64,000 bases of DNA from NCBI GenBank assembly GCA_041395665.1, contig JAWLAB010000003.1:215285-279284 (forward strand), given 5' to 3'. Below are positions 60,967 to 61,809 of this stretch, in pieces (position 1 is the stretch's first letter; each line of letters starts with the position of its first letter). This DNA comes from Pseudomonadales bacterium (lineage in GTDB: Bacteria > Pseudomonadota > Gammaproteobacteria > Pseudomonadales > UBA7239). The notes below the pieces were generated by a model, which worked only from the letters and a program-made list of their open reading frames with translations, searched no databases and had not been told where the DNA came from. A program made the position numbers and the translations under genes.

Positions 60967-61809
60967 TTATTCCAAAACGATTTTGCCGATAACATTACCG
61001 CCGCTATCAACAATATCGCCATTGCCCGAAACTTTACCGACTGTGCCGATAACGATTGGCTTATCGTCGGCATCCAAAATCAAATTACCTAACGCATCTA
61101 CCTTCAATACATTGTCGCCATCTTGTTTACCAACAATATTGCCGTCTTCATCGACAACAAAACCGTCTTTATCCACTTTGCCTAATATTTCTCCGTCTTT
61201 ATCAACTGCAACGAAATTACTCGTGCCGCCACCTGCCGCAGGATAAGTACCAATTTTGTTACCGTCGCTATCAATGACATTACCGTTGCTGTCTATCGTG
61301 CCAATCAAATTGCCTTCATCGTCGTAAACATTGCCTGCCAAAACGGTGCCAATGATTGTTTTGCCATCTAAACCGAGAGCCTCTGTACCGGTTGGCGGTG
61401 TGTAGGTTGTACTGCCGTCATCCGAGCCTGAGCCTGAGCCTGAGCCTGAGCCAGAACCGCCACCGCCACTACCACCGGTGCCGCTACCAGAACCAGAACC
61501 ACCATTGCCACCGTTATTAAAATTCACCAAAAAATTAGGGTATTCAGACGCGGAAATTGCAAAGGAATAACCTTCATAGCGATTGCGCAACACCTGCCCT
61601 AACATTTCCATCACGCTGCATTTGTTTTCATGGTTTGACCAATCTGTGCGTATGGATGATGCGGGGCATTGCAACGATCCTGGTGGAGAAATCGGCTGCA
61701 TCAATGCAAAAACAATGGCAGATGTCACCACGATATATTCCATACTGGATTGACCCAGTTGCTGTTTTCTCCTCGTTGTTTTTGCAGTGACAACATTCAT
61801 AAATCGCAC
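60967..61809 (-). CDS. Flp/TadE-type prepilin-like protein with Gly/Ser linker and C-terminal repeat domain
   Basis: The N-terminus ...RRKQQLG/QSSMEYIVVTSAIVFAL fits the G/XXXXEY Flp prepilin motif plus a hydrophobic helix. Residues 98-133 are NNGGNGGSGSGSGTGGSGGGGSGSGSGSGSGSDDGS. Residues 145-280 hold about 8 units of the same repeat seen in the CpaB-like gene (NVYDDEGNLIGTIDSNG, NVIDSDGNKIG, FVVDEDGNIVGK, DIVDSGGNVIGKIV). Confidence 0.8.
   Translation of the reverse strand: MRFMNVVTAKTTRRKQQLGQSSMEYIVVTSAIVFALMQPISPPGSLQCPASSIRTDWSNHENKCSVMEMLGQVLRNRYEGYSFAISASEYPNFLVNFNNGGNGGSGSGSGTGGSGGGGSGSGSGSGSGSDDGSTTYTPPTGTEALGLDGKTIIGTVLAGNVYDDEGNLIGTIDSNGNVIDSDGNKIGTYPAAGGGTSNFVAVDKDGEILGKVDKDGFVVDEDGNIVGKQDGDNVLKVDALGNLILDADDKPIVIGTVGKVSGNGDIVDSGGNVIGKIVLE
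60970..61377 (-). repeat. Coding repeat array (about 8 units) of the same xVxDxxGxxIGxV type
   Basis: See the translated sequence of ORF 60967..61809, residues 145-280. Confidence 0.8.
61424..61453 (-). repeat. Hexanucleotide simple-sequence repeat (GAGCCT)4-GAGCCA encoding (Gly-Ser)n
   Basis: A direct read of 61424-61453. It lies in frame within the Gly/Ser linker of the Flp-like repeat protein. Confidence 0.9.

Follow-up and report, generated by a model that had tools for sequence, protein, structure and literature searches.

Tad/Flp pilins are the smallest pilins and have no globular head, which makes the source of binding specificity in Tad pili a question. Recent work gives a binding role to TadE/F/G tip complexes joined to the fiber by Flp-like adapters. 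In the model for the Kil system of Myxococcus, TadE/F/G-like pseudopilins form a tip complex, and the small all-helical Flp-like adapters KilK and KilO, which are needed to prime polymerization, join it to the fiber (PMC12075869). TadE and TadF carry a Flp-like G/XXXXE[YF] site and are matured by TadV, according to Tomich 2006 as cited in PMC12307814. The ring pore of RcpC measures ~5 nm against ~4.5 nm for the fiber, and the beta-hairpin at the C-terminus of Pseudomonas aeruginosa RcpC, required for Tad function, is modeled to complete a sheet of the secretin N-domain (PMC12307814). Among pilins more broadly, “modular pilins” bear grafted functional modules (PMC8179133; PMC10191384). Here we describe a gene in a Tad operon of an uncultured Pseudomonadales bacterium, located in a 64,000-nucleotide stretch of contig JAWLAB010000003.1 (positions 215,285 to 279,284; GenBank assembly GCA_041395665.1), hereafter the window. 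Its product joins a pilin-like core to a Gly/Ser linker and a beta-hairpin repeat module related to part of the neighboring CpaB. With about even confidence, we regard this protein (the target) as a minor pilin of the Flp type in a Tad (type IVc) pilus, modular in build, adapter-like in position, and showing its repeat module near the tip.

The open reading frame (ORF), at 60967-61809 on the minus strand, encodes 280 amino acids if read from an in-frame GTG at 61809. The ATG at 61800 is the start used by gene callers in public assemblies and yields 277 amino acids. This exact 277-residue product is on record in the metagenome assemblies GCA_054403615.1 and GCA_054403755.1, and a look-up of recorded proteins returned no match to the 280-residue GTG-start product. 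All residue numbers given here refer to the ATG-start form. Compared with the orthologue at locus L009, from a sister metagenome-assembled genome (MAG) at a synonymous divergence (dS) of ~0.9, the ratio of nonsynonymous to synonymous divergence (dN/dS) is 0.08 over the whole gene and 0.04, 0.17, and 0.09 for the N-terminus, linker, and repeats, respectively (dS ~0.83 in the repeats), values which resemble those of the neighboring genes in the same comparison. The target is a real, conserved gene, and all three of its modules are under purifying selection. A previous reading of the DNA made without database searches (the sequence-only reading) had proposed this three-module architecture, and the sequence and an AlphaFold2 model show it to be correct, including the prepilin-like N-terminus, the Cys-containing region after the hydrophobic helix (C45 and C61), and a Gly/Ser linker of precisely the 36 residues counted. 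The gene and its parts are as follows.

60967..61800, minus strand: the whole target gene, from the ATG through 277 codons and the stop.
61753..61800, minus strand: leader peptide, residues 1-16 (MNVVTAKTTRRKQQLG), basic, its last residue the invariant Gly(-1).
61693..61752, minus strand: predicted N-terminus of the mature protein and hydrophobic helix alpha1, residues 17-36 (QSSMEYIVVTSAIVFALMQP), with Glu+5 and Tyr+6.
61615..61692, minus strand: variable loop, residues 37-62, with C45 and C61 (sequence, AlphaFold2).
61531..61614, minus strand: second helix with the family signature, residues 63-90 (SVMEMLGQVLRNRYEGYSFAISASEYPN) (alignment, AlphaFold2).
61372..61530, minus strand: disordered linker, residues 91-143, including the 36-residue Gly/Ser run (AlphaFold2, dN/dS, indels).
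61424..61452, no strand assigned: perfect hexanucleotide tract (GAGCCT)4.8 in the linker (Tandem Repeats Finder).
60970..61371, minus strand: C-terminal beta-hairpin repeat module, residues 144-277 (Pfam, AlphaFold2, BLASTP, hhalign).

The predicted processing site, MNVVTAKTTRRKQQLG(16)|QSSMEY, is of the G/XXXXEY prepilin-peptidase type with Glu at +5 and Tyr at +6, and stands between a short basic leader and a hydrophobic helix (KQQLG|QSSMEYIVVTSAIVFAL), the apolar stretch after QSSMEY being IVVTSAIVFALM. A strict pattern, G-x4-E-[YF] together with 12 apolar or small residues, placed close to the N-terminus, was matched by the target alone among the 327 ORFs of at least 50 amino acids in the window. 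Q14, G16, Q17, E21, and Y22 are invariant in a 20-sequence family alignment, as are G77 and A81 of the second helix, where Y78, S83, and P88 are at least 90% conserved; in a larger set of 132 sequences E21 and Y22 remain invariant, with G16 and Q17 at least 90% conserved. Profile-profile comparison with hhalign matched the first ~29 columns of the family to the Flp pilin family of the operon (97.4%, E 1.3e-11) and the family N-terminus to the operon's TadE N-termini (96.1%, E 3.6e-9, 26 columns), whereas a control comparison with the N-terminal transmembrane anchor of CpaB gave 0.5%. Because of these links to Flp and TadE and the negative anchor control, the N-terminus is, to judge from the profiles, a genuine class III (prepilin-type) signal followed by alpha1, somewhat nearer Flp than TadE.

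The AlphaFold2 model, built with the 132-sequence alignment, has the order helix, loop, helix, disorder, and beta domain. Helices are predicted at residues 17-34 (predicted local distance difference test, pLDDT, ~90) and 63-84 (pLDDT 86-88), and a short beta-bridge pairs residues 36-37 with 61-62. The CP...C pair is conserved within the subclade of the target in the family alignment, and C45 and C61 presumably form a disulfide. The core resembles Flp, KilK, and KilO (PMC12075869) in its basic leader, its G/XXXXEY site, and its two-helix, all-helical fold of ~50-70 mature residues, although for KilK and KilO the likeness is one of description and gene context; it differs in having a signature of its own, NYxGYS[YF]AxSxSEYP. 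Flp pilins are all-helical with ~40-60 mature residues, a size and fold kept by the short orthologues of 62-75 amino acids, whereas the mature target (after Gly16) has 261 residues once the appended linker and beta-hairpin module are counted. With TadE and TadF (PF07811) the target shares the leader and alpha1 signature and the operon, but it has a second helix in place of the TadE beta-sheet body.

An exhaustive HMMER search of 1.8 billion representatives recovered 19 family clusters, and a later profile search recovered 122 family proteins, so that the family comprises at least 120 protein clusters. Nearly all of the 122 proteins are labeled “hypothetical” (three are “Flp pilus assembly pilin Flp” in JGI records), and precomputed Pfam domains are absent from all of them; when residues 1-99 of the target were used in a word-indexed search for homologues, no match came up. 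Most members are 60-170 amino acids long and share the invariant Q-x-G-Q-x3-E-Y, the hydrophobic helix, and the signature of the second helix at an identity that is otherwise only ~25-35%. A synteny scan limited to one genome per species, with the N-terminal core as query, gave 28 loci. Over this core the orthologue at L009 is 91% identical to the target and that of a Cellvibrionaceae MAG (L011) 60%. Each orthologue identified in the 28 loci sits between the gene for a secreted protein, p244, and cpaB, directly upstream of cpaB. The family motifs and this position occur together in L009-L036, L037, L040, and L043 wherever an orthologue was identified, and all loci that reach far enough upstream have one Flp gene plus TadG-, TadE/F-, and TadE-like genes. 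This arrangement of genes is found in both Gamma- and Betaproteobacteria, for example in Shewanella sairae, Paraburkholderia, Massilia, Janthinobacterium, and Methylophaga. A Moraxella bovis plasmid carries an orthologue of 75 amino acids with the site QIG|NITSEY, labeled “hypothetical protein” in RefSeq. The operon on this plasmid (L043; NZ_CP087831.1, 62951-86609) is of the same type, and its flanks hold two RHS repeat-associated core-domain (toxin-type) genes, a large DUF2235 protein, and a lytic transglycosylase. There are hints, by analogy with the Kil system of Myxococcus, that this Tad variant may serve contact-dependent antagonism in some hosts.

Between core and repeats lies the Gly/Ser run NNGGNGGSGSGSGTGGSGGGGSGSGSGSGSGSDDGS, within a region (residues 89-150) where the AlphaFold2 pLDDT is below 50. 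The linkers of orthologues differ by indels. Within the same species but in different samples, the linker tract of L003 has a 12-nucleotide in-frame deletion (two units) relative to the window and L001, and the products are therefore 273 and 277 amino acids long.

The module that follows consists of repeats of the type xVxDxxGNxIGxV, which run to the C-terminus and form ~7-8 hairpins. In the AlphaFold2 model, residues 152-273 contain 14 strands of at least three residues plus short bridges at a pLDDT of 83-94. The estimate of about eight units in the sequence-only reading agrees with the modeled hairpins, whereas five units fit the strict pattern xVxDxxGxxIG and the further ones are degenerate. 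That reading had also called the repeat unusual; Pfam places it with the DUF3659/beta-flower hairpin repeats. DUF3659 (PF12396) scored 32 bits against a cut-off of 24.8 (E 1.2e-7, three stretches), and 27.9 bits in the orthologue P0001. Of the two beta-flower models (PF21785 and PF21784, clan CL0395), Bflower_2 reached 25.6 bits (cut-off 38, E 1.1e-5) and Bflower 15.9 bits (cut-off 25), both below cut-off. The beta-flower, a fold named recently, is built of [DNEQ]xxG beta-hairpins; it lacks a PDB relative and a known function (Durairaj et al. 2023, PMC10584680). Like it, the module has [DNEQ]xxG turns at the tips of its repeated hairpins, seen in the pattern units and in paired short strands of the AlphaFold2 model, and it too has no PDB relative: Foldseek searches of PDB with both AlphaFold2 models gave a best E of at least 0.09 and TM-scores of at most 0.15, and a PDB sequence search with the family profile and CpaB gave no matches. 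It departs from described beta-flowers in its Bflower scores, in having ~7-8 hairpins rather than the 4, 5, or 6 of the closed, shallow, symmetric barrels described, and in being fused to a pilin-like core, whereas the described ones are stand-alone proteins or lipoproteins.

The closest relative of the module lies in the adjacent gene, whose relevant features are the following.

58957..60936, minus strand: CpaB/RcpC, 659 amino acids (Pfam RcpC 2e-20, Bflower_2 5e-33; NCBIfam TIGR03177 1.2e-34).
59137-60126, minus strand: CpaB hairpin array, residues ~271-600, ~19 hairpins, between the RcpC domain and the terminal element.
58957-59136, minus strand: CpaB tail with the conserved terminal element (here RSYESMSGGNKENGVLKL), conserved across loci.

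CpaB comprises an N-terminal transmembrane anchor, SAF and RcpC domains, the hairpin array of ~330 amino acids, and the conserved C-terminal element, and it passes both beta-flower models (113.6 bits for Bflower_2 and 74.5 for Bflower). The kinship claimed by the sequence-only reading is well founded. BLASTP aligned the target repeats with the neighboring CpaB at E = 1e-14 and 36% identity in several registers, and hhalign of the orthologue alignments gave 98.9% (E = 1e-17, 125 columns), a significant outcome in the very profile-profile comparison that had been named as a possible refutation. At the DNA level, target and cpaB have repeat families in common with up to 80% identity over 41 nucleotides. 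A word-indexed search with the repeat module alone found one orthologous fragment and nothing else. Among orthologues, the module aligns column by column down to ~40% identity, and it is therefore, on the strength of its sequence conservation, an old, maintained domain. Apart from the homologous hairpins, the target differs from RcpC/CpaB (PMC12307814) in having no SAF or RcpC domain and in starting with a prepilin N-terminus where RcpC/CpaB has a plain transmembrane anchor. For P. aeruginosa RcpC a single C-terminal beta-hairpin has been described (PMC12307814), as opposed to the array found in CpaB here. The terminal element of CpaB (a hydrophobic pair, x, GG, x4, G, and a hydrophobic residue) is found at the end of short CpaBs as well and probably corresponds to that secretin-binding hairpin. 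Other loci have different hairpin-type arrays at the same place in CpaB.

Across the family the core is constant and the C-terminal tail is lineage-specific. The orthologues fall into the following tail types.

No tail (62-84 amino acids): L016, L018, L021, L028, L031, L033, L035.
Acidic tails of 50-115 amino acids: L012-L015, L017, L019, L022, L023, L025, L034.
Gly/Asp/Ser linker, 2-3 hairpins and a Cys-rich module: L024 (4105-5166), L030 (9998-11026), L032 (10004-11029).
Hairpin-repeat tails: the window, L009/L010, L011, P0002, P0004, P0005, P0007, P0008.

All tails of useful length are net acidic, including that of the target, where the hairpin module is itself net acidic and the region after the core has a net charge of -17, linker included. 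The acidic tails are probably disordered and often end in ...SPF, ...LPF, or ...TFP, which suggests a short docking motif. The orthologues of L024, L030, and L032 (Methylophaga, Piscirickettsiaceae) are 341-353 amino acids long and show a second kind of graft on the same core; their Cys-rich C-terminal module of ~200 amino acids has no Pfam match. The repeat-bearing members are the closest relatives of the target in the core and form one clade only. This close relationship, together with the column-by-column alignment of their modules, indicates on sequence grounds that the hairpin tail was a single old acquisition.

A family in which tails differ between lineages is, by analogy, a fit to the “cut and paste” pattern of modular pilins (PMC8179133; PMC10191384). 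Under the modular pilin concept (Raynaud et al. 2021), an N-terminal pilin is joined to a distinct module at the C-terminus, one found in proteins other than pilins as well; the family agrees with this, because orthologues exist without a tail or with other tails and the repeat occurs in CpaB and in DUF3659/beta-flower proteins. The target resembles PilB and PilC from Streptococcus sanguinis (PMC8179133, PMC9934059) in bearing a C-terminal graft on a pilin module, and different lineages of its family bear different grafts. PilB and PilC are, however, type IVa pilins with a globular head and vWA or lectin grafts, whereas the carrier here is a head-less Flp-type Tad pilin with a long Gly/Ser linker and a beta-hairpin graft.

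The distribution of repeats in the two neighboring genes is asymmetric. All repeat-bearing orthologues for which CpaB is visible adjoin a repeat-bearing CpaB (the window, L009, L010, L011, L037, L039, and L040). The converse fails: CpaB arrays of the same type accompany orthologues of 62-71 amino acids in L016, L031, and L033, and in many other CpaBs (for example, L012, L017, and L025) the C-terminal 300 amino acids are taken up by related hairpin arrays, such that hairpin arrays are far more widespread in CpaB than repeat tails are in the pilin-like gene. The sequence-only reading proposed a search for co-occurrence of the two across genomes, and co-occurrence holds for every repeat-tailed orthologue with a visible CpaB, but only in one direction and in one clade; because all repeat-bearing orthologues fall in that clade, the co-occurrence amounts to about one evolutionary event. 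Its argument that repeat sharing points to a functional pair is accordingly weak, given CpaB arrays also beside orthologues that are 62-71 amino acids long or otherwise tailed. A fixed pairing of long CpaBs with long pilin tails is ruled out by L016, L031, and L033, where the CpaB is repeat-bearing and the orthologue short, and is contradicted from the other side by L015, L019, and L034, which pair short CpaB ORFs with orthologues of 151-173 amino acids (the CpaB of L015 may be split by a frameshift or assembly gap). Electrostatic pairing of an acidic pilin tail with a basic CpaB array is likewise ruled out, the CpaB extensions being neutral to acidic.

The remainder of the operon supplies the context for the position of the target in the pilus.

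52219-64000, minus strand: the part of the Tad operon in the window; the operon is complete in L003 (4089-18718), a longer contig.
52219..58985, minus strand: downstream rest of the operon, with secretin, FHA-TadA ATPase, TadB, TadC, DUF192, tetratricopeptide repeat (TPR) lipoprotein, and TadE (259 amino acids) (Pfam), in an order conserved in the 28 loci.
61810..62544, minus strand: p244, a secreted protein (ORF list), syntenic in nearly all related loci.
62495..63436, minus strand: p313, a TadE/F-like pseudopilin with the motif QRG|QAMTEF, syntenic and with the motif conserved.
63433..64000, minus strand: 3' part of a TadG-like pseudopilin gene (601 amino acids, PF13400), which runs past the end of the window.

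The longer contigs (L003, L001/L004) give the order as cyclic nucleotide monophosphate (cNMP)-binding protein, 245-amino-acid lipoprotein-like protein, 92-amino-acid Flp, TadG-like, p313, p244, target, CpaB, secretin, FHA-domain TadA, TadB, TadC, DUF192, TPR lipoprotein, and TadE (259 amino acids). The Flp pilin gene, beyond the end of the window, was read from the complete operon in L003 and has the site KQLG|QGMTEYIIIVALIA; the TadG-like protein of 601 amino acids matches Pfam Tad at 8.3e-8. p244 bears a Sec-type signal; its stop codon lies immediately against the start of the target gene, which suggests translational coupling of the two. p245 (L003, 4594-5331) is a conserved operon protein with a lipoprotein-like look. 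Neither p244 nor p245 has a Pfam or NCBIfam match. The operon type is distinct and widespread; its marks are the FHA domain of TadA, a DUF192 gene that separates tadC from the gene for the TPR lipoprotein, and the conserved p245 and p244. A gene for the cNMP-binding protein precedes the operon in several loci, and no TadZ/CpaE was seen in the operon gene maps.

The operon thus holds one major Flp, three TadE/F/G-like tip pseudopilins, and, in the target, a second Flp-like gene. This is the parts list of the Kil cluster (PMC12075869), and it is the reason for placing the target in an adapter position. On this placement, the basic leader would hold the N-terminus on the cytoplasmic side, a prepilin peptidase whose gene lies elsewhere in the genome would cut after Gly16, and the TadABC motor would extract the mature protein, with its Glu5 and Tyr6, from the inner membrane. 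Insertion would be at low copy at the junction of the TadE/F/G-like tip complex and the Flp fiber, as for KilK/KilO of Myxococcus, and on its ~40-residue linker the acidic hairpin module would take up a place at the tip or alongside it, there to bind a surface or ligand. A single copying event from the array of the neighboring cpaB, in the forerunner of one Pseudomonadales/Cellvibrionaceae-related clade, probably gave rise to the module. That the protein is cleaved, incorporated, and displayed is predicted from sequence.

Several observations weigh against this interpretation. The comparison with Flp and TadE hidden Markov models (HMMs) that the sequence-only reading had proposed came out negative: Pfam Flp_Fap (PF04964) has no match in the full protein at E <= 1 or in residues 1-99 at E <= 10, and TadE (PF07811) none in the N-terminus even at E <= 10. 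An NCBIfam search of the N-terminus found no match either. Membership of Pfam Flp_Fap or TadE is ruled out by these failed matches, and the target belongs to an unnamed sister family of the Flp/TadE models. The operon's own Flp scores just 17.2 bits on PF04964 (cut-off 32.2, E 0.0044), and its TadE matches PF07811 at 1.6e-13. A crude, non-HMM screen for ORFs with a G.GD.K motif and multiple transmembrane segments detected no prepilin peptidase (A24) in the window or within 10 kb of the 28 loci, so that processing is assumed. The RcpC pore barely exceeds the fiber, and a side module of ~14 kDa could therefore pass only at the very tip. A partner in the periplasm is at least as natural a conclusion from a repeat shared with an alignment protein located there, the placement of the target in the fiber is itself predicted, and no ligand can be proposed because the fold has no PDB relative.

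These points lead to an alternative that we consider possible though doubtful, in which the target is a periplasmic docking pseudopilin, processed like a pilin but acting at the base of the machine with its module never displayed outside the cell. The module would bind the CpaB array, or mimic CpaB hairpins on the secretin N-domain by beta-strand augmentation, and so, within the CpaB-secretin conduit, keep the priming complex centered or gated. A periplasmic partner is plausible because the RcpC hairpin is modeled to bind the secretin N-domain and the pore barely exceeds the fiber, into which a bulky side module fits poorly. The homology of the module to the CpaB array (BLASTP, hhalign), the repeat-bearing CpaB beside each repeat-bearing orthologue where CpaB is visible, the place of the CpaB arrays just before the conserved terminal hairpin-like element, and the invariable location of the identified orthologues directly upstream of cpaB would all be in keeping with docking. 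Yet most family members have no hairpins though many of their CpaBs do, and core function therefore needs no homotypic repeat contacts; the co-occurrence stems from a single clade; and there is no charge complementarity between the target tail (-17) and the CpaB extension (0). The conserved Glu5 also argues for a place in the fiber, as this residue is the hallmark of type IV pilin subunits that enter the filament. A more specific version, which we regard as unlikely, is that the pilin-borne module is a detached copy of the CpaB array working in the periplasm, where it would insert among CpaB hairpins or compete with them at the secretin N-domain and, as a “key” on the first subunits, couple the start of assembly to the opening of the conduit. 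If true, this would be a previously undescribed cross-talk of a pilin with the Tad alignment complex.

The target could also be an unprocessed bitopic inner-membrane protein, its N-terminus a signal anchor and its role that of an accessory assembly factor tethering a periplasmic hairpin domain. The unmatched Pfam Flp and TadE models, the lack of a peptidase gene in the operon, and the noncommittal RefSeq label of the Moraxella orthologue would all agree with this, but we think it improbable: in a plain anchor Q-x-G-Q-x3-E-Y would not stay invariant, as it does in 130 or more sequences whose identity elsewhere is ~25-30%, the hhalign match to Flp and TadE N-termini is specific given the 0.5% control, and the same motif is found on the operon's Flp pilin, which must be processed. 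Nor does it seem at all probable that the repeat tail is a recent, functionless by-product of neutral recombination with the repetitive cpaB. Such an origin would account for the DNA repeat families common to both genes and for a slippage-prone linker tract that varies between samples, but it is disfavored by the dN/dS of 0.09 in the repeat module at a dS of ~0.83, by a module that can be aligned in orthologues just 36-41% identical to that of the target, and by the high AlphaFold2 confidence for the module.

In the literature searched we found no earlier account of Flp-type pilins bearing grafted modules, of the target core family, or of CpaB hairpin arrays, and none of DUF192 with Flp. The architecture is unusual and the family unnamed, whereas the principles involved (prepilin signal, minor pilins, and grafted modules) are established; the hairpin-tailed form is a rare variant of the modular pilin idea, with a putative function. 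The family is nonetheless widespread, fits the adapter position, and bears lineage-specific C-terminal grafts, and both it and the operon type (FHA-TadA, DUF192, no TadZ seen, no peptidase detected in the operon) merit a name and a model. The core function would be accessible in a cultured carrier of the operon type, such as Shewanella sairae, Paraburkholderia, or Moraxella bovis. If the module docks on CpaB or the secretin, it would link pilus priming with the alignment complex. Display of the module, the reading we favor, would carry the modular pilin principle over to Flp-type pilins and give the beta-flower/DUF3659 repeat its first functional context.

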